A DNA stretch of 43,778 nucleotides, the filler included, from Catajapyx aquilonaris (taxonomy: Eukaryota), in NCBI GenBank assembly GCA_000934665.2. It is 2 parts of 2 records of this genome, joined end to end, with 100 filler letters (N's around TTAATTAATTAA, not from the genome) between each part and the next. Parts side by side here need not be neighbours in the genome. Positions count along the whole stretch, not along the records: positions 1 to 21,843 come from JYFJ02005962.1; 1 more part is not named here. One strand, written 5' to 3'. The position numbers and the translations under genes were made by a program. The stretch's first letter is position 1. Each line of letters opens with the position of its first letter. The notes beneath the pieces were generated by a model, which saw only the letters and a program-made list of their open reading frames with translations, searched no databases and was not told the origin of the DNA. This document shows positions 5,710-43,778 of the stretch, piece by piece.

Positions 5710-8700
5710 TTAGTATGAAGTAAAGAGAGGCGGTGATTCGCAAATGAAGTAATTCTCCTGCTGGCAATCAAGGTCATCCCAGCTGAATCGCATGTCTCCT
5801 CGGTTGCTGAAGGCTGCACAATCCTGTCGACCATTGTAGCCGGCATTGTCCGGTTGACCTTCGCCCCAGTCAGCGAAGGTCAGCTTCCTCCTCGGGTACT
5901 GGTCGCCGTACCAAACCCCTTCGTGACCTAGGTCATACGCGCCCATCCAATCTGCCTCGCCTCGCTCGTGATCTGAAAGAGATTATATACGCATAACAGT
6001 GGTCAGTCATGATGAGAGGTCAAGACTGACCGTTCTTGGCCAGGTATCTCTTGAGGAAGTGGTTCTCTCTGGCGTCGTCCACCACCACCAGACTTCCTTC
6101 AGCCAGCTCTCTGCATCCTTCAGACGCTGACCACCAATTGGCCTTGGTGTCACTGAAGTGGTAGCATCCCTCACCAACAGGGGTGTATCCCTCGTGGCAG
6201 TCGTGCTGGGCTGATCACACAACAATAAGGGATTAAAACAGTGCATTTGTTGCAGACCAATTAACTGACCTGTCTGGTGGACCTGTTCGGTTTCGCAGAC
6301 GAATGAGAGCTGTTGGTCGCACCCGACGGCGGCCAGGTCCCACTGAGGCGTCGATAGTGGTCCGATCACGACGCACATGGCGTCGGTGGTCACTTCGTTG
6401 GACAGGAAGTGTCCGAACATGTCCATGTCCCGTCCACTGTGGTCCCATCTCCAGTTAAGCTCAGAGTCACTCTTACCGCCGATGTAATGCGAAGTGCTGA
6501 AATCTGCAAGTGAACTCATTGGTGAGCCGGGTTCGGACCCGGTCCACTTTTAGTACTTACGCTCCTGGAGATGCGATTTGATGACGTTGTCTTCTTCTAA
6601 CGAGTCTATTTCAGCCAGATATCCTCCACTACTCATACAATAGGACTTGGCTGCATCCCAATCCAACTTTAGACTATCGTCGACAAACATGTAGCAGCTA
6701 CCTTCCACATGCACGTAACCTTCCAAGCACTTCTCTTCCTCAGACTCGTCGCTTGCTGCTGTTAAACCAAGTGAAGAAATCACAAGTTGAGTACACATAT
6801 AGAGAGAAAAACCTACCTGTTTCGTTTCCTTCAGAGTCGCTTTCGTCTGATGATGAGAATCCAATGGAGCTGTTGTCTTCGTCTGAATCACAGTCGCACG
6901 ATTTTGATTCCGATTCTTCGCTTTCTTTCCATACGATTTCATCAGATGAACCGCCTTCTGAACCGAGGCCAGATCCTTCCCAAGATTCAGACTTTTCTTC
7001 AGACGACTCCAGATCATAATGTGAGCCGAATCCAGAACCAAGGCCAGATCCTTCCCATGATAAGTCTGACTCGTTTGACTCATACGTGGGCAGATCAATG
7101 GGGTTTTCTTCAGACGACTCCAAGTCGCCTTCTGAACCGAATCCTGAACTTTCCCAACCTTCAGAGGATTCTTCAGATGATTCCAGGTCATAATGTGAGC
7201 TGAATCCATCAGAACCGAGGCCAGATCCTTCCCAATATTCGTTTGATTCAGACAGATCACTGGTGATCTCGGATTCTGATGATTCAGGTTCTTCGACTGA
7301 TTCAGAGCTGGAAGATTCACTCGAGTTGGACTTGTCCTCACACGATTCTTTTGATTTCCTTTCGTGTGACTCATTTGCTTCACTCTCACTCGCTTCAGAG
7401 CTCTTGCTTTCACTCTCGGCAGTCTCTTCTGATTTGCTACTGTTTTCTGTAGATTCTTCACTCTCACTCTCTGAAGACTCTTTGGACTCTTCTCCAGACT
7501 CCACAGACTCTTCAGACTCCACAGACTCTTCAGACTCCACAGACTCTTCAGACTCTTCAGACTCTTCAGACTCCCCAGACTCTTCAGACTCTTCAGACTC
7601 CACAGACTCTTCAGACTCCACAGACTCCACAGACTCTTCAGACTCCACAGACTCTTCAGACTCCACAGACTCCACAGACTCCACAGACTCCACAGACTCT
7701 TCAGACTCCACATCAGACTCTTCAGATTCAGAAGCCTCAGACTTTTCTCCAGATTCTTCAGACTCTTCATACTCTTCAGACTCTTCAGACTCCTCAGATG
7801 CTTCAGACTCTTCGGATGCCTTTTTGGACTCTTCAGCATCTTCAGACTCAGAAGCCTCGTCTGACTCTTCTTCTGTTGACTTTTCAGATGCTTCAGACTC
7901 CACAGACTCCTCTTCTTCACTTTTGCTTTCTAGAGATTCTTCAGTATCAGAAGTGCCTTCACCAGACGACACTGCTTTGCTTTCATTCTCCTCAGTGCCT
8001 ATACTGTTGGTCTCGTCTGAAGTTTCGTTGTCACCTTCATACCCTTCAGTAGTTTCGTGTGACTCATCGACTTCACTTTCGTTCGATTCCTTCTTAGTTT
8101 CATTAGATTCCTCTTTGCTTAGTTCGTGCTCTTCTTCGCTCTTTATTAATGCAGATTCTTCACTTTCTGCTTCTGATCCTGGTGATTCTGTAACTTCACT
8201 TACATCTGAGACTGCATGATGATCACTAATTTCGTAGCTTTCAGTGTGAAATTCTGCTGATTCCGTGACTTTCCTCTCATTTGAGCCTGTATGATGATCA
8301 CTAATTTCATAGCTTTCAGTGTGAAATTCAGCTTCTTCTGTTACCTTCTCATCTGAACCTACATGATGACGATCACTGATTTCATAACTTTCAGTGTGAA
8401 ATTCTGCTGCTTCTGTGAACTTTTCATGCGATTCACCTACATGATGATCACTAATTTCGTTGCTTTCAGTGTGAAATAATTCTGCTGCTTCTGTGACCTT
8501 CTCAACATGATGATCACTAATTTCATAGCTTTCAGTGTGAAATTCTGCTGCTTCTGTTACCTTCTCATCTGAACCTACATGATGATCACTGATTTCATAA
8601 CTTTCATTGTGAAATAATTCTGCTGCTTCTGTGAACTTCTCATGTGATTCACCTGCATGATGATCACTAATTTCGTTGCTTTCAGTGTGAAATTCTTCTG

Positions 8701-9824
8701 CTTCTGTGACTTTCTCACCTGAACCTACATGATGATCACTAATTTCAGTGTGAAACTCTGGTTCTTCACTGACCTCCTTTGAACCGTTGTGTTCAGGATT
8801 CTCTTCATGTTCTTCGCTCTTTGATGTTGCTAATTCAGGCTCTTGCGTGACTGACTTTTCGTCCGACTCGTGCTCATTGTGTTCGAGTGATGTTGCATTG
8901 TCTTCAACCGTGTTTTTCTCTCCTTTGTCGTCATCGTCGTGTATTTCAAAGTGTGGTTCTTCCGTCGTTTCGTCGTGACGTCCAGGGTACACCGATTCGT
9001 TGTCTATCTCTCCCCAATCGCGCATGAAATCTGGCTGGATCTCATTACCTTCGCTGTGCTCATTCGAACCGTGCTTTTCTGCGGCCTCTTCAATGTTTAT
9101 CCCTGGGTGCATCACAGCATTGTCACTCTCGTCACCGATGCCATTGTCGAAAGGGTTCGACGTCGGTCTGTGATCTTCATGCAGTGGTTCAAACAGCGTG
9201 TTTGGGGTCGGTGGACCTTCGTGGTGTTCATCGAACGACGGTGTATGGTCATGATCTTCGTGTAAATATTCAAGTATCGGGCTGGGTGTCGGTACATCAG
9301 GTGGCGAATCGTCGCTTGGTCTGTCTACATGTTCTTCGTCATGGTCCGAATCACGTTTGTGCCTGTCTGTAACGAAACAGTGTAAGACGCACCAAGTACT
9401 TATGTGCTGTGAAGTGTATAGTTACTTTTTTCCTGGCACGTGTCTCCTGTGTATCCGTCCAAGCATCGGCACCTTCCTGTGTCCGTACAGAAACCGTTCG
9501 GACCACAATCTTCAGGACACACGTTTGGTGTGCAATGTCCATCAGGACCGTCGCTGAACCCATCGCAGCATGTCTCCACTTCCCTGGTCTGTAGAAATAG
9601 GTTCGTCAGTTTTAAAAAAGGCTGATCTTTACTACGCGACGACAACGGACGTTATTGTGGCTTTGCCAATTCGTCGCGTAGTAAAGATCTTCCGAAAATG
9701 ACCGTACCGTTCCGTCCGGATCAGTTTCTTCCTCCAGGTAGTAGCAGCTGCTTCTGAATCGTCTGTCCGCACTTATAAGGACAACAGTGGACACGACGAT
9801 GAGACATGCAGTGGACAGCTGCAT
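5710..9824 (-). CDS. Large secreted mosaic protein: CCxG[FY]/EGF, acidic His/Glu and Ser/Glu repeats, two C-type lectin domains; 7 exons (9824-9708, 9588-9426, 9366-6817, 6758-6561, 6503-6270, 6210-6031, 5972-5710), ~1234 aa
   Basis: All junctions are GT-AG and phase-compatible, total 3705 nt. Signal peptide MQLSTACLIVVSTVVLISA, then CCDGF..CTPNVCPEDCGPNGFC...CRCLDGYTGDTC, RHKR and an ~850-aa acidic region. CTLD1 begins CLEGYVHVEGSCY..W..A..YC. CTLD2 is CHEGY...GCY...WMG...WGEGQPDN...DC...WDDLDC...FICE. Confidence 0.85.
7480..7910 (-). repeat. Coding 9-bp tandem repeats giving (ESE/ESV)n
   Basis: CAGACTCTT / CAGACTCCA units on the plus strand, inside exon 3. Confidence 0.9.
8215..8760 (-). 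repeat. Coding tandem repeat, 8 copies of ~21-26 aa (EFHTESYEISDHHVGSDEKVTEAA)
   Basis: Visible in the 6740..9115 ORF translation and in the DNA. Confidence 0.9.
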
Positions 9825-10615: not shown

Positions 10616-11066
10616 TCACAGATGCTGTTGTATGTCCTGGAAGTCAACTTCATCTTCGCAGGTGGGTCCGGCGTATCGTCCAGGTTGGCAGGCACAGTCA
10701 CCTGGCCGCACGCAGATCCCCCCGTTGGCACAGGTGTTAGGGCAGAATGGCACGCACTCGCCGTAGATGGGATCATTAGCGTAGCCTTCGCAACACGCTA
10801 ACGTAACCTGCCAGGAATAACACATAAATCAGCATCAATTTAATCAATCTGAATTAATTTCATCAAGTGTGCACATTCACAACATGATCAAGAGCATGCA
10901 AAATTTTAAATTCCTTTAATCTCTTTAAATGCAAAGCCCTTACCGTTCCATCAGGTTGAAAGGATTGATTGAAGCATGTATGTATTCGTACAGTCATGCA
11001 GCAGCCCGCGCTTATCATCGACAGAAGTACCACCGCTGCAACAAGAGTCATGCTGAACTTGGTCAT
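10616..11066 (-). CDS. Small secreted Nimrod-like CCxGY + EGF protein A, 2 exons (11066-10944, 10807-10616), ~104 aa
   Basis: Signal peptide; exon 1 ends PDGT|gtaagg; exon 2 is VTLACCEGY...CVPFCPNTCANGGICVRPGDCACQPGRYAGPTC. TATAAAA lies at ~11104-11110. Confidence 0.8.
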
Positions 11067-11334
11067 CGTCTCGGCAAACTGGAGAAATAATCTAGCAAGT
11101 TTGTTTTATAACCCAGACTACATTCAAATAGTATCTGCTCACTCTTTCCTGCAAAGCAAGTCGTATCTGTTGCACAACTTCCACATTCCAAATCAAGTGG
11201 TGGCAGACCACTACGAGCGATTACTGGAGATATTGCGCTGACTGTTGAGAATGAATTACTGACTAAGCATGAATCTGCATTAATTGATTTAATGTCAATA
11301 CATCACTTATGTACAAGCGTGAAGTACAGTTCGG

Positions 11335-11747
11335 TTAGTATAATCTCTCTTGTGGTCCTAAATCAATTTCACAGTTGGGTCCGGTGTATCGCTCCTCAGG
11401 ATAGCAGATGCACCGGGCTGGACGTACGCAGATTCCTCCATTTTTGCATCCTCCAGGGCAGATCGGTGCACACGTCCCGTGGATTTCACTGTCAGCGTAG
11501 CCATCGCAACACTTGTACTCCTCCTGCCAGAAGCGAAACCACATTTCAGATGCAAGCATACTTTCTCATGGCATATTGCACTAACATAATTTTTTTACCC
11601 CCAGACTTTTAAATTCCTTACCGATCCATCAGGCGACTCCACAGGAACACGGCATCTGTCGATCCGCACGGACAAGCTGTAGACTGCAGATAACGTAGAC
11701 AGAAGTACAACAGCAGTAAGAGCTGTTGCACGTACTGAGTGGGTCAT
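11335..11747 (-). CDS. Small secreted Nimrod-like CCxGY + EGF protein B, 2 exons (11747-11622, 11523-11335), ~104 aa
   Basis: MTHSVRATALTAVVLLSTLSAVYS signal peptide; PDGS|gtaagg; EEYKCCDGY...CAPICPGGCKNGGICVRPARCICYPEERYTGPNC. Confidence 0.8.
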
Positions 11748-12009
11748 GATGATCTTGCTCTCTACTCGAAGCGACCTATGAAACAGAAGTTCGTGGTGAA
11801 TATGCCGGACCTGACAAATCTACATCAGCTCCTCTTTCCTGCGAACCAATCGCATCAACCTAACTTCCACCTTAGCCTGAATCAGACATAGCAGTCATTT
11901 GCAGAGCGATAAACGAGATATAAAATGGCATGTTGAGAGCGAATTACTGACTAGTATGAGTATGCATCAATTCATTTAATGTGTTATACAAGCGTGAAGT
12001 ACAGTTCGG

Positions 12010-12383
12010 TTAGTATAATCTCTCTTGTGGTCCTAAATCAATTTCACAGTTGGGGCCGGTGTATCGCTCCTTAGGATGGCAGAAGCACCGAGCTGGACCC
12101 GTGCAGTATCCTCCATTTTGGCATCCTCCAGGGCAGACCGGTGCACATGTCCCGTAGATTTCACTGTCAGCGTAGCCATCGCAACACTTGAACTCCCCCT
12201 GCCAGAAGCGAAACCACATTTCAGATGCAAGCAATTTTTACCCCCGACTTTTAAATTCCTTACCAATCCATCAGGCGACTCCACAGGAATACGGCATCTG
12301 TCAATCCGCATGGACAAGCTGTAGACTGCAGATAACGTAGACAAAAGTACAACAAGAGCAATTGCACGTACAGAGTGGGTCAT
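12010..12383 (-). CDS. Small secreted Nimrod-like CCxGY + EGF protein C, 2 exons (12383-12264, 12198-12010), ~102 aa
   Basis: Close tandem duplicate of protein B; PDGL|gtaagg; GEFKCCDGY...CAPVCPGGCQNGGYCTGPARCFC. Confidence 0.8.
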
Positions 12384-12665
12384 GATGAACTTGCTTGCTA
12401 CTCAAAGCGACCTTTTAAACAGCAGTTCGTGGTGAATCTACCGGACCTGACAAAATCTACTTGAGCTCCTCCAAATCGCATCAACCTTACTTCCGCAGTA
12501 GCCTGAATCAGCCATGGCAGTCATTTGCAGAGCGATAAACAAGATATGGCTCGTCACATGTTATGCAATGCACTTCCCACATTTAAAATTGCATGACATT
12601 TAGGCATGAAACAGTTTTATTGCCCCACTGGAAAATAACTACAGAAATACATGGACTAGCAAGTG

Positions 12666-13805
<1,140 letters not shown>

Positions 13806-13821
13806 TACTTATAAAGTGTAA

Positions 13822-14368: not shown

Positions 14369-14979
14369 ACACTACATAAGAGGCGCAAACATTCGATTTC
14401 CGCGACTCTCTATTTGGGGCGTTGCCGAGGCTGGTGGCCATTTTGAAGTGTGGGCAACGCCAACGAGGTATAAATAGGGTACAGGCAAAAATAGGGTCCG
14501 TCTTCTTTGATTCGTCCGTGTTCTTGCCGTGTAGTTGCCATGGCCGCCAAAACCATCAAAGATGGCGGCGGACCATATTTTTGCCTGTACCCTATTTATA
14601 CCGCGATGGCGTTGCCCACACTTCAAAATGGCCGCCAAAACCATCAAAGATGGCGGACCATATTTTTGCCTGTACCCTATTTATACCGCGATGGCGTTGC
14701 CCACACTTCAAAATGGCCGCCAAAACCATCAAAGATGGCGGACCATATATTTGCCTGTACCCTATTTATACCGCGATGGCGTTGCCCACACTTCAAAATG
14801 GCCGCCAAAACCCTCAAAGATGGCGGACCATATTTTTGCCTGTACCCTATTTATACCGCGATGGCGTTGCCCACACTTTAAAATGGCCGCCAGCCTTGGC
14901 AACGGCCCCAAACAGAGAGATGCGAACATCAAAGGCGTCGACAGAAGTTTGCGCCTTAGTAGGCCTATTATGCTCCCTG
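14369..14979. mobile_element. MITE family A, copy 2, with an internal ~85-bp unit amplified 4 times
   Basis: Ends TATGCTCCCTG|GTCACAC and the left flank carries GTCACA. Units start at ATGGCCGCC near 14540, 14628, 14713 and 14798. Confidence 0.9.
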
Positions 14980-15355: not shown

Positions 15356-15691
15356 TAAGAGGCGCAAACTTCGGTCAGCGCCATTGATTTCCGCGTCTGT
15401 TTGGGGCCGTTGCCAAGGCTGGCGGCCATTTTTAAGTGTGAGCAACGCCAACGATGTATAAATAGGGTACAGGCAAAAATAGGGTCCGCCGCATCTTTGA
15501 TGATGGTTTTGGCGGCCATGGCAACTACACGGCAAGAACACGCGCGAATCAAAGATGGCGGACCCTATTTTTGCCTGTACCCTATTCATACCTTCGTTGG
15601 CGTTGCCCACACTTCAAAAAGGCCGCCAGCCTTATTGGCAACGCCCCAAACATAGAGACGCGGAAATCGAATGTTTATTGTATGCTCCCTG
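15356..15691. mobile_element. MITE family A, copy 3 (degenerate, left end truncated)
   Basis: Same palindromic body, ending TATGCTCCCTG. Confidence 0.85.
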
Positions 15692-17249: not shown

Positions 17250-18200
17250 ACAAATTGGCACCACTGGAGAGGTATAGAATCAGTGGTGCCAAGCTCAAAT
17301 CACGATAACTGTTACGCTGAACAGGTTGGCACCACCTGAGACGTAAAAAAAACAGTGGTGCCAAACCACAGGCAGGTTGGGTACACTTTAAAATCACGAT
17401 AACAGACTGTGGCTCTGAGCATATGTCTCAGCAGTGGGGTTGGCACCACTGGAATCTCGGAGCAGTGGTGCCAAACTCAAGTCACGATGACTGGTGCCGA
17501 ATATTCGGGCAATGTTGATAGACAAACACCTGCTTGAGCAATTGGCGCCATTGGGGACGTGAAGCAGTGGTGCCAAACTCAAAGTCACGATAACTGTAGC
17601 GCTGAACATTGTTCAAGCAGTGTATCCAACACCTGCGTGAACAATTGGCACCACTGCAGACGTGCAAGTGGTGCCAACACCTGCTTGAACAATTGGCACC
17701 ACTGGAGACGTCGTACAAGTGGTGCCAACACCTGATTGGACAATTGGCACCACTGCAGACGTCGTACAAGTGGTGCCAACGCCTGCCTGAACAATTGGCA
17801 CCACTGGAGACGTACAAGTGATGCCAACACCTGATTAGACAATTGGCACCACTGCAGACGTCGTACAAGTGGTGCCAACACCTGCTTGAACAATTGGCAC
17901 CACTGGAGACGTGCAAGTGTTGCCAACACCTGATTGGACAATTGGCACCACTGCAGACGTCGTACAAGTGGTGCCAACACCTGCTTGAACAATTGGCACC
18001 ACTGCAGACGTCGTGCAAGTGGTGCCAACGCCTGATTGGACAATTGGCACCATTGGAGACGTCGTACAAGTGGTGCCAACACCTTCTTGAACAATTGGCA
18101 CCACTGGAGATGTACAAGTGGTGCCAACTCCTGCTTGGACAATTGGCACCATTGGAGACGTGCAGTGGTGCCAAAGTCAAGTCACGATAACTGTGGCGCT
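17250..18200. repeat. Tandem array of 48/51-bp palindromic units (11 core units at ~17640-18175 plus 4 degenerate units)
   Basis: Unit AATTGGCACCACTGCAGACGTCGTACAAGTGGTGCCAACACCTGCTTGAAC with arms TTGGCACCACT / AGTGGTGCCAA. Confidence 0.9.
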
Positions 18201-19139
18201 GAACCTGTTCGGGGTATATAGTTGTGCCAACACCTTTCGGAGTTGTAATAGGGCCTTCCAGTGAGTTGAGTGTGTGGGCACAGGAAGCACCCGTGACAGG
18301 AAGGTGACCTTGAGGCCGTGACCTTGGCCACCCCTTTGTGTTGTGTTGCTCCGGTTTTGGCAACATGTTGTTTTTTTTTGGCGGTGTTGCGAAGTTACCG
18401 TCGAGTGACGATTTATAGTGCAAATCACGGCGCCTCCAAGATGAAAGTGTAAACAAGCACTGAGAGTGTTTATCATACGGGGTTGGCCTGTCAAGGTGAA
18501 GCCAATCCCGATCAGCTGACGCGGGTTATCTAACTACCTGCCTAGCTCCCACACTCTTCATGATAGCGCCGCAAGACCCCAGGCATCAATTACCCACCCT
18601 TGGAAGTACTATCTATCGCCTATAATATACATTGCAACATATATGGCAACCAGTGCAGTACAGGAAACCTGGCCGACACACTCGAAGGTCTATTACCTGG
18701 ACACACTACTTCCTGGCTGCCTTGAGAAAGTCGCCAATACGTGGAACCATATGGCACACAAAAAATAGGCTGTATAGTTGAATGGCTGCTTACTACAAAT
18801 GTTGGCAGCCCTGCTCATCATGACCAGATCCAAACGTTGCGCAGCAACACTCGGAAAAATAACACTGTAAAAACAGCACCATCATTTAGTGCGAATACAA
18901 AATAAGGTGTGCCAACATTTCATCTCAAGTAGGAAGGCCATCAACTATGGACCCCCGACCAACCAAGCCAATGTTGTAAACAATGCATAAATCAACCGGT
19001 TATAACGATGGATTGCTTTTTCCTCCCAATACAAATTTACGCACCACTAAGCTGCTTATTTGCATCATATAAATTTAGTGGTTATCAATAAATTAGCTGC
19101 CACAATAATTAATATATCAGTCTAACAGTTGAGAGTCAT

Positions 19140-21843: not shown

Positions 21844-21943
21844 NNNNNNNNNNNNNNNNNNNNNNNNNNNNNNNNNNNNNNNNNNNNTTAATTAATTAAN
21901 NNNNNNNNNNNNNNNNNNNNNNNNNNNNNNNNNNNNNNNNNNN
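21844..21943. other. Artificial 100-bp scaffold spacer (44 N + TTAATTAATTAA + 44 N)
   Basis: Symmetric N runs around a linker that has stop codons in all six frames. Confidence 0.95.
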
Positions 21944-24014: not shown

Positions 24015-27000
24015 TTACGACACGTCCTGCTCCTCCACGTCCTGCAGCTGCTCCTTCGGTTCTGATTCGCCTCCTGGGTTGAGCAAGAGAAAGATTAAGT
24101 GTTGCAAGTGTTAATGGCGAAAGTGCTTCATGCCAATACGTACCTGTCTCCCCTTCCTTGGGAACCTCACCGTCTCCCTGCATGTCAGAGGTCCACAGGG
24201 TGAGGTTGTCCCTCAGCAGCTGCATGATGAGGGTGGAGTCTTTGTAGCTCTCCTCGGAGAGGGTGTCCAGCTCCGCAATGGCATCGTCGAAGGCGGCCTT
24301 GGCCAGGCGGCAAGCCCGGTCGGGGGAGTTGAGGATCTCGTAGTAGAACACAGAGAAATTGAGGGCTAATCCCAGCCTGATTGGGTGGGTTGGGGGCAGC
24401 TCTGTGGTCGCTATGTCACTAGCAGCCTTGTAGGCCATTAGGGAGTTCTCCGCTGCCTCCTTCCTGTCGTTACCAGTGGCAAACTCGGCCAGGTATCGGT
24501 GGTAGTCTCCTTTCCTGCAATTAGGACGGTAGCGTTAGTCATGATGTCATAATGTCATGCCCTGCTCCAAGTGCTGACTACTGTAACCTACACCGTTACT
24601 TTTGTAAACAATCTGCCCTTTTCCAGAGCAGTAACCAAATTATCTTTTACTTCATTGATGACAGAAGCTAGCCCCAAGTTTCCAACCACCACTTTCGTTC
24701 GTACAAATTCAATTCCTTCCGTCCTGAATATGGCATTGACACAGAATGCCTTACTTCCGCACTAGTTAAATTACCTGGCAAACCTCGCCTGGGAAAATTG
24801 TTCCACGTGCACGGAACATGCAATAAATTAGCGGGCTTAGTGCAGCCATAACCTAATCAATTCCTTTCATGAAAGCAATGCTTTTCAAATGCAGCCTTAG
24901 CCTCAAGCCTTTTCCAAACAGCGTTGGTGGTGCTTGACCTGAGCCAGCCCTACTTCCTCCAATCAATATCAAGAATAATTGCATTTGACCCCTAGTGGCT
25001 TTCAATTTCCAAGAGGAAGCGGAAATGCCCTGGGAAAACATATCCCATAACTTCTATAACAACATTTCCTGCCCTTGGTTTCATCGCTGTTAAGAGCAGT
25101 ACGTCTCGACAAACACGGGGAGACACAGGAACACATCCGATCCCACCACATCAACAATTCAAAATCGAAAAAGCCACTCACATCTTGTAATAGAAGACTC
25201 TGGACTCCCCGGAAGTAGCGCAGGGGATGAGGTGTTTGTCCAGGACTCCCAGAATGTCTGAACAGATCTCCCGCAGCTCCTTCTCCACCTGAAAAATTGA
25301 CAGAAAATATTACTGTCACATGCACGGAACAACCTCTCAAATCCCCCATGCACTCAGCATCTGAGCTATTGACAACCCTGCACTGCTGCCAACGTTGATA
25401 AGTAGCATAACTGTCAACACAATTCCCAAGGGATGCCATCCACTTGCCTTATCTCTAAGCCACTTATGTTCATTAATCTGAACAAGATCTGGCGATAATT
25501 CACTTTGCACAGTTGAGCCGGGATGGCGCCAGCTATGTCACTAGCCAGCAGGTGGCAAGAGTAATACCAGCGCACATGCCTGCCACCTGCTGCCCAGAGG
25601 GAAGCAACACACACTCGCATGAACACACTGCCCGAGTCTCGATTATAGATTACTGGCTGCTAATCAAATATTGGTAACCCAATTAAATTGATCGACTGCT
25701 CTCTTAAACGCATGTCGTACTAGAATACAACACTTTCCAGCACACACCAGAGAAGGCTTGTATACTGACTTGTGCCCGGTACTGCCTGATCATCTCCAGC
25801 TTGTCCTCGGCCCCCTTGTTCTCCTCCTTCTGCTCAATGCTGCTAATAATCCGCCAGCTGGCCCTCCTGGCACCTATCACGTTCTTGTAGGCCACAGACA
25901 GAAGGTTACGCTCCTCCACTGTCAACTCCACGTCCATTGAGGCCACTTTCTTCATCGCCTCCACCATTTCTGCACCAAGAGAAGCACAACAGATCAGTCA
26001 AGTTCAAAAGCATCAAATCCAAATTCCTGAAAACGGGAATATACCAGCTCCATCGCATCTGTTCATCAGCTAATCGGTTCAGTCGCCAATAATAATGAAC
26101 CCGACATGAGTGCGATAACTTCAGCCTCATTCTACAAAGCAACATGTTTTTGATGCAATTAGCGCCCAAAATGGGTCACATGTCCCTCAACAGCCGCAAG
26201 GGTACTCCACTTTGTGCGCCATAATGGATGGTGTGTGGGACTCAAATTGGATCAAGCTTTTATGAACTGAGAATGGCCTGTTCCTAGATAATTGAAACCA
26301 GTTTTATGCACATGCTCCACATACGCGTACCGTCATTTCAACTTTTAATTGCTCTGGCAACAATGTCGCACGTTTAATGAGAACGGCCTGCACCTGTCAT
26401 GTTCGACCCCCATGCAAATAGACTGCTCCCAACCCTAAAACAGGTTTTTCCGAATATGGGCCGTCCCGATTTGTAGTAAATCGCAACTTCTCAATCAATT
26501 GGTTGTGCAGGGGAGGGAACAGGTAGGCAGAGGGAGAGAGAGGTGGGGTCAAAACTAATGATGGAAATATTGATCTCCCATGCAATAGCCACGCCTTTCA
26601 AGTAGACATTTTTTTTCCTCCCATGGCCACATAAAACAGACCGGCCACGTAATGATCACCGGACAACCTGTTAATTGGGCACCCAAAAATAGGAGTGCCA
26701 CTGCAAAATTGTGCATCGGTAATGACATGCGGAAAAAGGGCGCAGGGTCAATGAATTGACCTCGTGTCATGTGGGGGGACGATGGGGCTTCAACCCTCAT
26801 CTCCAAACCTCCCTTTAATGAATGGAGACTAGTAAGCTTCCCTTCCCCCTTTTTTTTGCGACGGCGTGGCGACATCCAAGTGAGGGGGGGGTTTCCAGTG
26901 GGGGAGTGAGTAAGGGAGGGGAGAGGCAGGGGAGGGGGGTTACGTGGGAAAAAGATCAATATATCGACTTCCCAGCTCAAACGACGCGCCAGGCCCTTTC

Positions 27001-30436: not shown

Positions 30437-30948
30437 GGCTTCGGATTACGACGGATTCTGATCGCAGGGCGGGCAGGGGGAAGCTCTTCTCTCTTTTGGG
30501 CCTCTCTACTCCTTCCCTCTGCTGCTCTCTGCTGCTGCCTCGGCCTCCGCTTCGATATCCAGTCGTAGGGGGGAGCAGGCGGCGCACAGAGAGGGCGGAT
30601 GGGATGGCGGCGGGTCGGGCAAGGGGGAGCTCTGCTGCGGGGGCTGGGAGGAGGAGGAGGGGAAGGAAGAGGGTTCGCCGGCCGCCTTTTTGGAATATAA
30701 NNNNNNNNNNNNNNNGGGCGGGGCGGACAAGGAAACTACATGATTCATTAACAGATGGCGCTGGTGTTCGGGACAAGGAGGGGTGGGGATCTGGCGGGAT
30801 CTGGCGGGAGGGGAGGAAACTACTTGGTCAGTGGCGGTTGAATTGATCAGTTGTAATTGGACGGATGGTAGGTCGTGCGGATAGTAGGGGTTTTCCAGTG
30901 AGGTCATGACGTTTCAAGGGTCGTATGACATCAAGGGCAGGGAGCATA

Positions 30949-31335
30949 TCTTCTTCTATATAAATAAAGCCGTTTGTGAGTCTGTCTGTCTGTCTACCTC
31001 TCTGTCTGTTTGTCTGCCTGCCAACCGTCATTTGCCTGCAATGTGCTCCACCCATGGACATAGCCAGGATTTAGGTTAGGGGGGGGGGNGGGGGGCAGCT
31101 GCCCTCCCTGGCTACGCCCATGGCTCCACCCCCAGGCCGGGAGAGGATGGGGGTTGACTACAGATGGCAGGCAAATGACGGTTGCAGTTATACAGGCGGG
31201 AGAGGTTGAAGGTGTTGGAGTAGCAGGACCACAGATGGCATTGGTGGCCGGACACACAGAAAGACAGACAGTTGACGGGGCAGATGTTTTCCCTTCATTC
31301 ATTTCTTCCCGGGAGACGCCGGGTGCCGCAGCTAG
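30949..31335 (+). mobile_element. Non-autonomous Helitron-like element in the left TIR
   Basis: Inserted between A and T. 5' TC...TATATAAATAAAG, a (CTGT)n tract, 3' hairpin CCCGGGAGACGCCGGG, then CTAG. No TSD. Confidence 0.8.
31053..31122. mobile_element. 70-bp hAT-like mini-element with 8-bp TSD GCTCCACC
   Basis: TIRs CATGGACATAGCCAGG / CCTGGCTACGCCCATG. The sister Helitron copy shows the empty site. Confidence 0.8.
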
Positions 31336-31672
31336 TACTACATAAGAGGCGCAAACTTCTGTCGGCGCCTTTGATGTTAGCGTTTCTCTGTTTGGGGCCG
31401 TTGCCAAGGCTGGCGGCCATTTTGAAGTGTGGGCAACGCCAACGAGGTATAAATAGGGCACAGGCAAAAATAGGGTCCGCCATCTTTGATGGTTTTGGCG
31501 GCCATGGCAACTACACAGCAAGAACACGCGCGAATCAAAGATGGCGAACCCTATTTTTGTATGTGCCCTATTTATACCCCGTTGGCGTTACCCACACTTC
31601 AAAATGGCCGCCAGCGTTGGCAACGGCCCAAACAGAAAGACGTGAAAATCGAATGTTTGCGCCTCTTATGTA

Positions 31673-32439
31673 CAGGGTGGGCGAAAAGTCCCAGGACACC
31701 TGGCTTTTTTTTGCCTGCAAAACAAATCTGTGCATGGAAAAAGTGTCGGGATGCTGGTGTAACATCTTCTGGACACTGACGGAACTGTTTGATGAGGGGA
31801 GACATCTGGGGACCCCCAACAACCCCCACAATAAATTAACAATGTTAACAGTGCGAGATGGCGGATACGAGCGGGTTCACTGTGGAGGAGAGACTTGTGG
31901 CTACTGTGTGGGTCCACGAGAGGCCTCATACGGGAAAGAACCTAACGCACATCATGCAGGATATCAGGGCTCGTTTTGGTAAGGCGCCACCGAGAAGAAG
32001 TAACTTGTTCAAGTGGGAGAAAAAAGCATTTATCAAGGGAAGTGTCTTTCACGCTTCCCGTCTTTCACATTTCACATGCTGAATGCTTTTTTCTACTACT
32101 TGAACAAGTTACTTCTTCTCAGTGGCGCCTTACCAAAACGAGCCCTGATATCCTGCATGATGTGTGTTAGGTTCTTTCCCGTATGAGACCTCTCGTGGAC
32201 CCACACAGTAGCCACAAGTCTCTTCTCCACAGTGAACCAGCTCGTATCCGCCATCTTGCACTGTTAACATTGTTAATTTATTGTGGGTGTTGTTGGGGGT
32301 CCTCAGATGTCTCCCCTCATCAAACAGTTCCGTCAGTGTCCAGAAGATGTGACACCAGCAAATCCGACACATTTTCCATGCGCAGATTTGTTTTGCAGGC
32401 ACAAAAAGCCAGGTGTCCTGGGACTTTTCGCCCACCCTG
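31673..32439. mobile_element. Fold-back Tc1/mariner derivative made of two opposed 5' ends, TA TSD
   Basis: TA|CAGGGTGGGCGAAAAGTCCCAGGACACC...GGTGTCCTGGGACTTTTCGCCCACCCTG|TA, with inverted arms of ~350 bp. Confidence 0.88.
31858..32046 (+). pseudogene. Truncated mariner-like transposase N-terminal helix-turn-helix (mirrored in the right arm)
   Basis: MADTSGFTVEERLVATVWVHER...IRARFGKAPPRRSNLFKWEKKAFIKGSV resembles the F...PP....I..W...F...GSV (DUF4817-like) transposase N-terminus. Confidence 0.7.
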
Positions 32440-33179: not shown

Positions 33180-33508
33180 CAGGGAGCATATACTATATAC
33201 ATGAGAGGCGCAAACATTCGATTTCCGCGTCTCTCTGTTTGGGGCGTTGCCAAGGCTGGCGGCCATCTTGAAGTGTGTGGAACGCCAACGAGGTATAAAT
33301 AGGGTACAGGCAAAAGTAGGGTCCCCATCTTTGATTCGCGCGTGTTCTTGCCGTGTAGTTGCCATGGCCGCCAAAACCATCAAAGATGGCGGACCCTATT
33401 TTTGCCTGTATCCTATTTATACCTCGTTGGTGTTCCCCACACTTCAAGATGGCCGCCAGCCTTGACAACGGCCCCAAACAGAGAGACGCGAACATCAAAG
33501 GCCCCCTG
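33180..33508. mobile_element. MITE family A, copy 5, with perfect 7-bp TSD GTTATGT
   Basis: GTTATGT|CAGGGAGCATA...CCCTG|GTTATGT. Confidence 0.92.
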
Positions 33509-40300: not shown

Positions 40301-41790
40301 AAGCACCCATTATGAGGAAAGAAAACCAAGCAACAATGCTGTAAAAATAAATTGCTAATCATCAAGGCGGTAAAAAGGGGACATTTTCTTGAGCACCTTT
40401 AAAAGAAGGGCATCAATCTTAAGAAGAAGATGTCGAGTTTTGCCAGACAGGGTTGGAAAGCCTTGAGGGTAATGTTTAGATTACTGGGGGAGAACGTCAA
40501 TTACAGGGGGACTTGATGAGATGTTATTAACTGCGTCCACCCCTCTTTTTACGGCTTCTTTTTTTAGTAAAGGTGCTAAGGAGTGATCTGTATGCGCGAA
40601 TGGGACGGTATTTGCAGTGTACACAACCGATGGAGGTCGTTGGCTGATCAAACATTGGGGATGGTAATGGGTAGTTGGGAACAAAATGGCGTTGACGCGT
40701 GGGTGGAGCGGGATGGGAAGACATAGCATTTGTTGACAACATGTTCCTCTTCAGCTCTCAGTGGATGGTGGCAGGTGCGGGTGATCCTCCGCTGTCTAAC
40801 AACACTTATGTCCATCCTGACTCACCCGCGCGAGGTCAGCTATGGATGGCTCAGGGGGTAGTGACTTTTGACCGTCTGAAGTTGACCAACAACAGAAAGC
40901 CGGTGGTTAGAGGTCAAGTGTCACTACACTCGATGCACAAGTACCTCCCCCGCATCCATATCCAGCAGACTGATGACCTGGACACTCCTCCAGAGTTGCA
41001 GATGGATGTGACCAGGTCACACTCCTTCAGCTTCCCTGAAACAGTCTTTACCACAGTCACGGCCTACCAGAACCAGCAGATCACCAGGCTTAAAATAGCC
41101 AGCAACCCTTTCGCCAAAGGGTTCAGGGAAGCCTCCAGAACCAGGTGTGTCAATTGTTGTACATTGTTGTAACTACGAATCGATGAAGTCATAAACGTCA
41201 TGTTGACGGGCATAAAGAGTCTCCCTTAATTCCTCCGAGGTTCAGACACCTTTCATCACGACAGTACCGACCATACCTCCCCCATTTCCAGACATGATTA
41301 TCCCATTAACCCTCCCCTCTTTATCCCCGCCCCCCCCCCCCTCTACTGTATTATGGGTTGAAATGGGCCGTGGGAATGACTCTATGTCCAACACACTGGA
41401 ACCGATGCGATGTGTAATTAGGACCCATTTCAAACTCCGGTCTTTAGATGGGGCAACAATTAATTTGTCACGCAACTGCACCTTTCGTTACTTATACACC
41501 GTATGTCCTATAGGGAGGTCAACAATGAAGAGTCCAGATGCAACTCGTCGATTATGTCGCCTATGTCACCTGTAGCACCATTGCCTCTACTGGGATGGCC
41601 CTGGGGTATGCCCCTACCGCCTGCCCCGGGGCCGCCCTCCCCATGGTCTGGTTTCTGGACAACAGAGCAGCAGTCACAGCAGCCCTGTTGCTGGACACTT
41701 CCGTTTCCCAAAGGTATGTGCCGTCCCAAGGAGAAACACCGTAACTTCAAAATTAGTAAGGGTGACAGTCGCGTGAATGCCCTGCACTAA
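37388..41790 (+). CDS. TBX15: T-box transcription factor of the Tbx15/18/22 class, 4 exons (37388-37599, 38817-38933, 40755-41144, 41514-41790), ~331 aa
   Basis: eh1 motif [96 protein letters not shown] and [15 protein letters not shown] are Tbx15/18/22-type residues rather than Tbx20-type. Confidence 0.88.
39018..39847 (-). mobile_element. Non-autonomous Helitron-like element carrying ~4 tandem ~172-183-bp repeats, in T-box intron 2
   Basis: Minus strand A|TCTTACATACGGTATATAAA ... CCGTGGGTTCCCTGCTAG|T. Repeat units start near 39115, 39298, 39471 and 39642. Confidence 0.7.
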
Positions 41791-42126: not shown

Positions 42127-43424
42127 TTATTTCCATCCTTCGCAGTAGTAGATGCTCTTGCCGGTACATACGGTGAACTTGGGTATGGCTCCTCTATGGT
42201 TGTTGTCAGCGGACAGAACGCAGGACTGCATACCTCGAAGGCACCCTAGTGTCTGAAACACACAGTAAGGTAAACACGGACAGCATGAGCAGGGAGCATA
42301 TACTACATAACAGGCGAAAACTTCTGTCGGCGCCTTTGATGTTCGCGTCTCTCTGTTTGGGGCCGTTGCCAAGGCTGGCGGCCATCTTGAAGTGTGGGGG
42401 ACGCCAACGAGGTATAAATAGAGTACAGGCAAAAATAGGGTCCGCCATCTTTGATGGTTTTGGCGGCCATCACGGCAAGAACACGCGCGAATCAAAGATG
42501 GCGGACTCTATTTTTGCCTCTACCCTATTTATACCTCGTTGGCGTTCCCCACACTTCAAGATGGCCGCCAGCCTTGGCAACGCCCCAAACAGAGAGACGC
42601 GAAAATGGAATGTTTGCGCCTCTTATGAATGCTCCCTGGTATGAGTGTCAACGCAGTACCATACCGTGAATGTCTTTCGGTCGATGATCCTCAGCAGGTT
42701 TCCTTCTGAACCACCCGCCATGATGCAATCCTTTCCTAGCCACTGGCAGCAATACAACTGTATAGAGAAACGGTACAGTCAGCATCGTTACCAACGTTAA
42801 GAGTCAAATCCGTACCAGCGAGCTGTATATCTCAGGTTTCACATCATACAACAGCTGTCCACTACCGTAGTCCCAAATTTCCAACGCGTTGTTCTTTCGG
42901 TACGAAGCGCTCAAGATCTGCAATGCAAGTACTGTACAGTCTGGAGCTGGACATGTCCCATTTGACTCACTTCGCGTCCGGAGAAGTCGATGTCCAGTCC
43001 TTCCCCGCAGACGTGTGGTCCGAATATCTTCCGGACAGCGTGACGCACCCGGAGGTCCCAGTACTGGACGGTGTTGTCCCAACCTCCGGACAACATCTGG
43101 CTGTTCCCGCTCGGGTGGAAGCACAGGCAGAACACACGGGATTGGTGTCCGTCCATCTGGTCCGGTGTCCCACTGAAGATGGTAAAATTGGACAGTCAGA
43201 TTATGAGGGACAACTCAGCTTCTAAGGACCAAACCTTGGTTGGAGACGAGAGACCTCCTGCAGAGTGTCAGGGTTGTACACGTTGAGTATCCCGTCGTCT
43301 CCACCGGTAACGAAGACATCTCCGTTCGGACTGAACGCCGAAGTGAAAGTCTGTCTGTTCTCCCTGAGGGACATCAGGCACTGACCAGTGGCCGGGTGCC
43401 AGCTCTTGATGAACCCACTGGCAT
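42127..43424 (-). CDS. WD40-repeat protein, 3' exons (43424-43235, 43172-42971, 42917-42816, 42757-42665, 42252-42127); 5' part beyond the window
   Basis: AFSPNGDVFVTGGDDGILNVYN; GHQSRVFCLCFHP...LSGGWDNTVQYWD; LEIWD. GT-AG junctions are in phase. Confidence 0.85.
42290..42638. mobile_element. MITE family A, copy 6, in the last WD40 intron
   Basis: GCATGAG|CAGGGAGCATA...ATGCTCCCTG|GTATGAG (6/7 TSD match). Confidence 0.9.
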
Positions 43425-43460: not shown

Positions 43461-43778
43461 CAGGGAGCATACATAAGAGGCGCAAACATTCGATTTCCGC
43501 GTCTCTCTGTTTTGGGCGTTGCCAAGGCTGGCAGCCATCTTGAAGTGTGGGGAACGCCAACGAGGTATAAATAGGGTACAGGCAAAAATAGGGTACCCAT
43601 CTTTGATTCGCGCGTTTGTCGTGTAGTTGCCATGGCCGCCAAAACCATCAAAGATGGCGGATCCTATTTTTGCCTGTACCCTATTCATATCTCGTTGGCG
43701 TTCCCCACACTTCAAGATGGCCGCCAGCCTTGGCAATGCTCCAAACAGAGAGACACGGAAATCGAATGTTTGCGCCTC
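43461..43778. mobile_element. MITE family A, copy 7 (runs off the window end), intronic
   Basis: Starts CAGGGAGCATACATAAGAGGCGCAAAC. Confidence 0.9.

Follow-up and report, generated by a model that had tools for sequence, protein, structure and literature searches.

Does the locus at 9824..5710 on the minus strand of our window (the whole stretch of 43,778 nucleotides from Catajapyx aquilonaris, assembly GCA_000934665.2, along which all positions are counted) encode one secreted protein, in which a small Nimrod-like head is continued by a long acidic linker and two C-type lectin domains (CTLDs), or have separate genes been read as one? Our analysis favours the first answer: with a probability of roughly 0.55 this is an intact secreted-protein gene, in which the small Nimrod-type gene at the end of a tandem array is joined to a downstream acidic dual-lectin gene, and the product would be a precursor processed by a proprotein convertase. 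That the gene is real, an exon-shuffled mosaic lectin of the arthropod kind named CTL-X, is probable judging by its sequence.

The seven exons, joined by script, give one frame of 3,705 nt and 1,234 residues (Table 1), with the parts in the order of signal peptide, ten-cysteine head composed of a CCDGF motif and one EGF module, the tetrapeptide RHKR, an acidic exon of 850 codons and the two CTLDs. All six introns are of the GT..AG type and measure 119, 59, 58, 57, 59 and 58 nt; intron 1 is in phase 0, while introns 2-6 are all in phase 1 and fall within a length class of 57-59 nt. Since exons 3-6 are exact multiples of 3 nt and are bounded by phase-1 introns, they are symmetric 1-1 exons, the kind that is capable of being shuffled. 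Pfam searches with all exons returned EGF for exon 2, Lectin_C for exons 4-7 and no family for exon 3, and an AATAAA lies 111 nt 3' of the stop codon of the gene. The calculated isoelectric point of the whole protein is 4.1, and its net charge is about -285. Wherever we checked, the elements listed in the earlier note on this DNA were all present on the minus strand at their positions, and the acidic stretch of about 850 residues with two CTLDs behind it is borne out by the open frame and by the Lectin_C profiles.

The acidic linker is coding. Exon 3 has no stop codon in the chosen frame and 17-128 in the other five frames; already over its first 600 nt the chosen frame is open and the other five contain 3-21 stops. 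The eight His-rich repeats of the linker differ in length by whole codons only, and their alignment gives a ratio of nonsynonymous to synonymous differences (pN/pS) of 0.40.

The join between the head and the acidic exon

A phase-1 splice from exon 2 into a 2550-nt exon, which starts by completing an Asn codon and continues with RHKR, had been described earlier and is seen in our joined gene model as well. We tried 26 GT..AG pairs around the gap between exons 2 and 3, and the frame stays open in nine of them. Only in the pair 9426->9366 does a GTAACT donor meet an acceptor with pyrimidine tract and CAG (TTTCGTTACAG) and is the sixth EGF cysteine retained; five of the nine use a GTGCCA donor at the cost of the last EGF cysteine. 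The resulting intron 2 of 59 nt shares its length class and its phase with introns 3-6. We consider this join probable.

One would argue that the joined model is an artefact, that the head is a fourth stand-alone gene ended by the TAA in "intron 2" and that the acidic and lectin exons are a separate gene or a decaying remnant. Exon 2 read into intron 2 indeed yields a product of 101 residues, close to the 102-104 residues of the three small paralogues upstream (S1, S2 and S3 in Table 1), and it counts on the same side that the fused layout was seen in no orthologue among the phmmer matches examined. However, S1, S2 and S3 carry ATTAAA or AATAAA 29, 41 and 64 nt past their stops, whereas neither signal follows the read-through stop of the head (TAA 9402-9400) for 1,242 nt. 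The second part does not resemble an independent gene either: its frame opens with neither a Met nor a signal peptide close by, only 59 nt separate it from exon 2, and the intron in between fits introns 3-6. The 1,141 intact downstream codons and the pN/pS of the repeats also speak against an artefact. Thus we regard such an artefact as very unlikely.

The direction of the event is a different matter. The earlier note offered either a fusion of a mini-Nimrod gene with an acidic lectin gene or an origin of the small genes by truncation of the large one; the paralogy of the head to S1-S3 and the in-frame splice stand, and the sequence is compatible with both directions. The 101-residue read-through product fits a fourth small gene which gained a donor and captured its downstream neighbour, and equally well small genes which are 5' truncated duplicates. 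S1-S3 themselves are stand-alone genes, as there is no phase-1 donor in their tails. For the same lack of a phase-1 GT donor, their use as alternative 5' heads spliced onto exon 3 was ruled out.

Head, cleavage motif, linker and lectin domains

The head follows the plan of its three small neighbours, which lie upstream of the large gene on the same strand (10616..12383), each with its own poly(A) signal: all four genes encode a signal peptide, one cysteine, PDG[LST] before a phase-0 intron, then CCxG[YF] and an EGF module, in agreement with the layout (signal peptide, PDGx, intron, CCxG[FY], EGF) that had been noticed before. Between the large gene and S3, S2 or S1 the identity of exon 2 amounts to 39-43%, and nine of nine cysteines are invariant. 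By these protein features the head is a fourth, true paralogue of S1-S3. It is an old one, since in blastn the head region shares no likeness at the DNA level with the three small genes. S1 and S2 (within 11243-12547) form a young tandem duplicate with 83% identity over 680 bp, a stretch that takes in about 160 bp ahead of either start codon.

The term "Nimrod-like", used for the head in the earlier note, holds in part. Members of the Nimrod superfamily, as defined in the available portion of PMC4073527, combine a signal peptide with a CCxGY motif and with NIM repeats of the form CxPxCxxxCxNGxCxxPxxCxCxxGY. In the large gene, residues 1-19 form a hydrophobic stretch ending in ISA, after which the signal peptide is likely to be cut (assigned by eye); the second motif is present as CCDGF, with Phe for Tyr, and as CCDGY, CCDGY and CCEGY in the paralogues; and residues 58-85, aligned by eye, agree with the NIM consensus in 11 of 12 fixed letters if two one-residue insertions are allowed, Pro being replaced by Thr. 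The head and each small paralogue contain a single NIM/EGF-type module and not several in a row, and the portion of PMC4073527 available counts 7 NIM repeats in AgNimB2 and 21 in AgEater. A named Nimrod protein was returned by none of the sequence and structure searches. The Pfam matches of exon 2 are EGF_Teneurin (1.8e-6) and EGF_2 (1.1e-4), its best matches in a PDB sequence search are the EGFs of WIF-1 (9.3e-6), with SCARF1 at 0.35, and a word-index protein search with exon 2 gave no candidate. The nearest protein language-model clusters are of the EGF_2/EGF_PEAR1L/Teneurin type together with one EMI cluster, at scores of 0.84-0.86, which are below 0.9 and serve as leads only. The predicted fold of the head had a predicted local distance difference test (pLDDT) score of 69.7, and Foldseek found no PDB match at E<=0.001; a Notch1/DLL4 EGF complex ranked first with 0.16, and the N-terminus of SCARF1 ranked 27th with 0.57. 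"Nimrod-like" is therefore a fair description at the level of motifs (signal peptide, CCxG[FY], one relaxed NIM-type EGF), while the searches put the EGF of the head into the broad PEAR1/Teneurin/WIF-type class.

Directly behind the head lies RHKR (9364-9353, minus strand; residues 95-98), five residues past the last EGF cysteine and exactly at the border between the folded head and the disordered linker. Proprotein convertases recognise R-x-K/R-R where it is exposed in a secretory protein. The furin consensus R-X-K-R, which the earlier note had placed at the start of exon 3, is thus confirmed as a candidate convertase site, and R-x-[KR]-R occurs nowhere else in the 1,234 residues. The tetrapeptide is encoded wholly by exon 3, which suggests that the site came with the acidic-lectin partner.

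The motif need not be used, and a single gene in which RHKR is cut only partly or not at all is the main alternative, if a tentative one. The intact chain would then act as a bridge or opsonin, with the lectins on microbes or debris, the head addressing phagocytes and the linker serving as a spacer. Drosophila secreted Nimrod B proteins are opsonins or corpse-binding factors, as stated in the available parts of 10.64898/2026.08.28.747790 and 10.1101/2025.01.07.631694, and dual-CTLD immulectins are pattern-recognition receptors according to the accessible text of PMC5842395; cleavage would part two such binding ends. Chance is a further point on this side, at least one R-x-[KR]-R being found in 619 of 20,000 composition-preserving shuffles (3.1%). 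Set against it are the singularity of the site, its position at the border, where it would be exposed, and a surrounding sequence in which nothing protects it.

The linker itself is extreme in composition: exon 3 consists of 27% Glu, 20.5% Ser, 6.7% Asp and 6% His, and the protein contains nine HH pairs, 96 S-x-E motifs and 14 N-x-S/T sequons, with three cysteines in the linker. Its second part is recognised by Tandem Repeats Finder with a period of 75 and 7.4 copies; folded from single sequence (pLDDT 56.2, predicted template modelling score 0.54), the His-rich repeats are predicted at low confidence to form one beta-strand each. The bulk of the S-x-E motifs falls into the third part. Available sections of PMC8348777 and PMC11714710 give S-x-E/pS as the target motif of the Golgi kinase FAM20C, and S-x-E in a secreted protein, the FAM20C-type pattern, is present here 96 times. 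In the fourth part there are four SGxG repeats, acidic-flanked Ser-Gly sequons at residues 808, 834, 867 (with 871) and 892; according to the available text of PMC10570366, xylosyltransferases start glycosaminoglycan (GAG) chains at Ser-Gly where the protein is unstructured, and heparan sulfate is favoured if acidic residues and Trp are close by. A word-index search with exon 3 gave no match at E<=0.001 among 7,999 scored candidates, and a metagenome scan with its first 199 residues gave no relative.

Such a composition raises the alternative that the acidic His-rich chain is the functional core, which the lectins only localise, and that the protein is secreted for storage or as a structural component that binds metal or calcium, for instance in the cuticle, in the gut lumen or in the matrix of eggs or spermatophores, much like phosvitin, starmaker or phosphoproteins of the DSPP type. 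Besides the Glu, Ser and His content, the HH pairs and the S-x-E motifs, this is suggested by the language-model cluster nearest to exon 3, "protein starmaker", whose score of 0.81 (below 0.9) makes it a lead only, and by DSPP, likewise a processed precursor with a proteoglycan as N-terminal part (PMC3039539, in the portion available). However, the likeness is compositional, with no homology, and the idea overlaps with the precursor reading so that the two differ in emphasis only. Mineralisation is not known from springtails, which we also count against it. As an explanation in its own right it appears rather unlikely.

Both CTLDs are split by an intron at the same position of the Lectin_C profile, so that profile positions 3-107 are spanned by exons 4+5 and positions 2-106 by exons 6+7; taken alone, three of these four exon pieces exceed the Lectin_C cut-off of 22.6 bits, and each CTLD has six cysteines. 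CTLD2 aligns with the carbohydrate recognition domain of DC-SIGNR (1.9e-8), with EPN changed to QPD and WND to WDD at the sugar/Ca2+ site. QPD is a galactose-type motif. A PDB sequence search with CTLD1 gave no match at E<=0.1. The chain ends eleven residues past the last cysteine, and as no hydrophobic anchor follows CTLD2 the protein should be soluble. According to tblastn of the model protein there is no second copy of the linker or of the CTLDs in the window.

What the sequence shows is the open frame, the logic of the splices, the domain content and the paralogy; for furin cleavage, phosphorylation, GAG chains and function the precursor reading would run as follows. A small gene would have been joined to the acidic-lectin gene via a short phase-1 intron; the signal peptide would route the chain of 1,234 residues into the endoplasmic reticulum, where the ten-cysteine head and the two six-cysteine CTLDs would fold, and a furin-type convertase of the Golgi would cut after RHKR98. 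The products, which the earlier note had proposed as those of a polyprotein, would be a head of about 79 residues (20-98), similar to the products of the neighbouring genes, and a polyanionic lectin of 1,136 residues starting with DSDHDEEH. Its disordered linker, with a net charge of about -240 before modification, would probably be phosphorylated on many of the S-x-E motifs and may bear GAG chains on the four acidic SGxG repeats. The C-terminal lectin pair, with its galactose-type QPD in CTLD2, would tether this hydrated cation-binding "brush" to glycans of matrix, cell surface or microbes, and the processed precursor would thereby yield a product that acts in the manner of a small lectican or of a mucin-type proteoglycan.

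A protein with the same layout of head, linker and two CTLDs was found in none of the databases and papers searched. Exon 7, searched by phmmer against 1.84 billion representatives, gave 1,041 matches at E<=0.001, none of them at 1e-30 and the best with 46% identity. Among the best 150 of these, CC.G[FYW] occurs in none (0/150) and a 200-residue window with at least 30% Asp+Glu in one, P0015, which consists of six CTLDs, an fn2 domain and an acidic tail; Pfam on 15 of the best 150 showed no layout of head, linker and two CTLDs. A word-index search with exon 7 yielded seven candidates and no match, and a metagenome scan no relative. The literature searched contained neither a Nimrod-type head joined to CTLDs nor an acidic dual-CTLD protein in springtails. 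Arthropod proteomes are only partly covered by these searches, and the blank is therefore weak evidence.

Several points weigh against the processed precursor. In three of the nine pairs that keep the frame open, the donor is unchanged but the acceptor lies within exon 3, at 9333, 9324 or 9255, so that RHKR would be skipped; these three acceptors are purine-rich and lack a pyrimidine tract. The strongly acidic residues right after RHKR could affect cutting. Cleavage at RHKR, like phosphorylation and GAG chains of the linker, is a prediction from motifs. CTLD1 is divergent, with no EPN or QPD and no WND, and CTLD2 has Gln at the position of a Ca2+-ligand Glu of DC-SIGNR, so that carbohydrate binding is not assured. 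Finally, no orthologue or protein of the same layout was found in the word-index, phmmer and metagenome searches.

Should the join be real and the cut be used, the gene would be a clean case of exon shuffling via phase-1 introns, by which a Nimrod-type module was coupled to a lectin-tethered polyanion, and it would offer a testable non-vertebrate lectin-anchored "brush" protein, possibly phosphorylated or GAG-bearing. A bolder proposal, which we hold to be improbable, is an independent hexapod lectican-like proteoglycan or phosphoprotein working two-in-one: furin would free a phagocyte-addressing Nimrod-type peptide together with a GAG- and phosphate-bearing polyanionic lectin that coats glycan targets. 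A single gene would then supply an opsonin or matrix-tagging system with both of its halves, and S1-S3 would be free-standing versions of the released peptide.

Gene structure and further features of the window

The positions of the exons, introns, linker parts, small neighbouring genes and other features are given in Table 1. The RrnaAD, 14-3-3 and T-box exons belong to three conserved genes and mark the genome as that of an animal.

Table 1. Coordinates of the gene model, its small neighbours and other features along the window
Feature	Position	Strand	Description
Exon 1	9824-9708	-	117 nt; start codon 9824-9822; predicted signal peptide, first head cysteine C27; ends ...PDGT, phase 0
Intron 1	9707-9589	-	119 nt, GT..AG; contains perfect 19-bp inverted repeat
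Exon 2	9588-9426	-	163 nt; begins TREVETCCDGF; CCDGF and one EGF, 9 cysteines; ends ...CQEK, phase 1
Intron 2	9425-9367	-	59 nt, GTAACT...TTTCGTTACAG; in-frame TAA at 9402-9400
Exon 3	9366-6817	-	2550 nt; completes Asn codon, then RHKR DSDHDEEH; 849 whole codons
Linker part 1	9352-8759	-	residues 99-296; non-repetitive, Asp/Glu/His/Pro-rich
Linker part 2	8758-8180	-	residues 297-489; eight His-rich repeats of 21-26 residues, e.g. EFHTESYEISDRHHVGSDEKVTEEA
Linker part 3	8179-7247	-	residues 490-800; Ser/Glu-rich, about 46 copies of a 9-bp unit (SEE/SVE tripeptides)
Linker part 4	7246-6947	-	residues 801-900; four W-E-G/S-S-G-x-G repeats
End of exon 3	6946-6817	-	residues 901-944; acidic, CDC motif
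Exon 4	6758-6561	-	198 nt; N-terminal third of CTLD1; Lectin_C profile 3-36, E 4.7e-5
Exon 5	6503-6270	-	234 nt; remainder of CTLD1; Lectin_C profile 40-107, E 3.3e-5
Exon 6	6210-6031	-	180 nt; N-terminal third of CTLD2; Lectin_C profile 2-35, E 8.4e-4
Exon 7	5972-5710	-	263 nt including stop TAA 5712-5710; remainder of CTLD2; Lectin_C profile 39-106, E 9.2e-6
S1	12383-12264 + 12198-12010	-	two exons, 102 residues
S2	11747-11622 + 11523-11335	-	two exons, 104 residues
S3	11066-10944 + 10807-10616	-	two exons, 104 residues
RrnaAD exon	13158-13808	-	rRNA adenine dimethylase, TFB1M/DIMT1-like; 7.7e-31
14-3-3 exon	24091-24534	-	C-terminal half; 6.8e-55
T-box exon	40696-41172	+	T-box DNA-binding domain; 2.6e-40
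Dispersed repeat	2361-2692, 14371-14956, 15356-15676, 31300-31700, 33198-33505, 42301-42627, 43470-43778		about 330 bp
Minisatellite	17482-18525		long open frames on both strands
N runs	21844-21887, 21900-21943, 30701-30715		assembly gaps or masked stretches; 106 N in window

Intron 1 departs from the length class of the other introns through a perfect 19-bp inverted repeat (9624-9642 / 9671-9689, with a spacer of 28 nt): the hairpin-like insert of 66 nt (9624-9689) accounts for a length of 119 nt rather than about 58 nt. The inverted repeat is unique in the window, two matches were reached in 0 of 100 shuffles, and it may be a small foldback insertion or a hairpin RNA.

The strand opposite to the linker contains an open reading frame of 341 residues rich in Ser and Asp (7194-8219, plus strand), which was rejected as a gene: lying antisense to the Ser/Glu repeats, it is a by-product of their low complexity and has no Met and no flanking domain exons. 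Copies of the dispersed repeat are 75-92% identical to each other, with partial tandem copies at 14.4-15.0 kb, and its open reading frames have no Pfam family; as the repeat matches itself on both strands at each site, it is palindromic and resembles a miniature inverted-repeat transposable element. The minus-strand frame of the minisatellite reaches 347 residues with ...SGANCS.RCWHHLYDV... units and has no Pfam match.

Comparison with known systems

NimB-type secreted proteins (Drosophila NimB1-5 and Anopheles AgNimB2), as far as the available portion of PMC4073527 goes, share with the protein described here the signal peptide, the CCxGY-type motif, the six-cysteine NIM/EGF repeat and the lack of a membrane anchor, and like the genes described here they form a tandem cluster of paralogues. 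In contrast to them, our protein has a single repeat, CCDGF, and a NIM fit that takes two insertions and a Pro-to-Thr change. Moreover, the Nimrods compared have neither a lectin domain nor an acidic linker in the literature portions available, and both are present here.

CTL-X is a descriptive class, in which CTLDs are combined with modules such as EGF, CUB, CCP and FA58C (PMC5842395, portion available). The gene would fall into this class, with a layout unreported in the databases and literature searched; among the CTL-X proteins in the accessible part of PMC5842395 there is none with an N-terminal Nimrod-type head, a furin-type site or a polyanionic linker of 850 residues. Immulectins, too, are secreted proteins with two tandem CTLDs; according to the same part of PMC5842395, however, they consist of two CTLDs only and form a lepidopteran clade, whereas here about 950 residues of other modules precede the CTLDs. 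The available text of PMC6389355 ranks C-type lectins among the most expanded families of the springtail Sinella.

DSPP and starmaker resemble our protein in the extreme content of Ser, Glu and Asp and in the many S-x-E kinase motifs, and DSPP is cut into an N-terminal proteoglycan part and a phosphoprotein part (PMC3039539, portion available). The likeness is nevertheless compositional only, as these proteins have no lectin or EGF domain and play their role in mineralised vertebrate tissues.

The vertebrate lecticans, such as aggrecan and versican, have an N-terminal Ig/link G1 domain and a C-terminal EGF-CTLD-CCP arrangement. Unlike them, the protein described here has no Ig, link or Sushi (CCP) domain in any exon according to Pfam, its EGF is N-terminal and its CTLDs are two; no homology of its linker was found, and its GAG chains are predicted from motifs. 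What the lecticans have in common with it is the overall construction: a middle region that is long, disordered and acidic and contains Ser-Gly sequons for GAG chains, an EGF in the chain and, at the C-terminus, a C-type lectin able to tether it.

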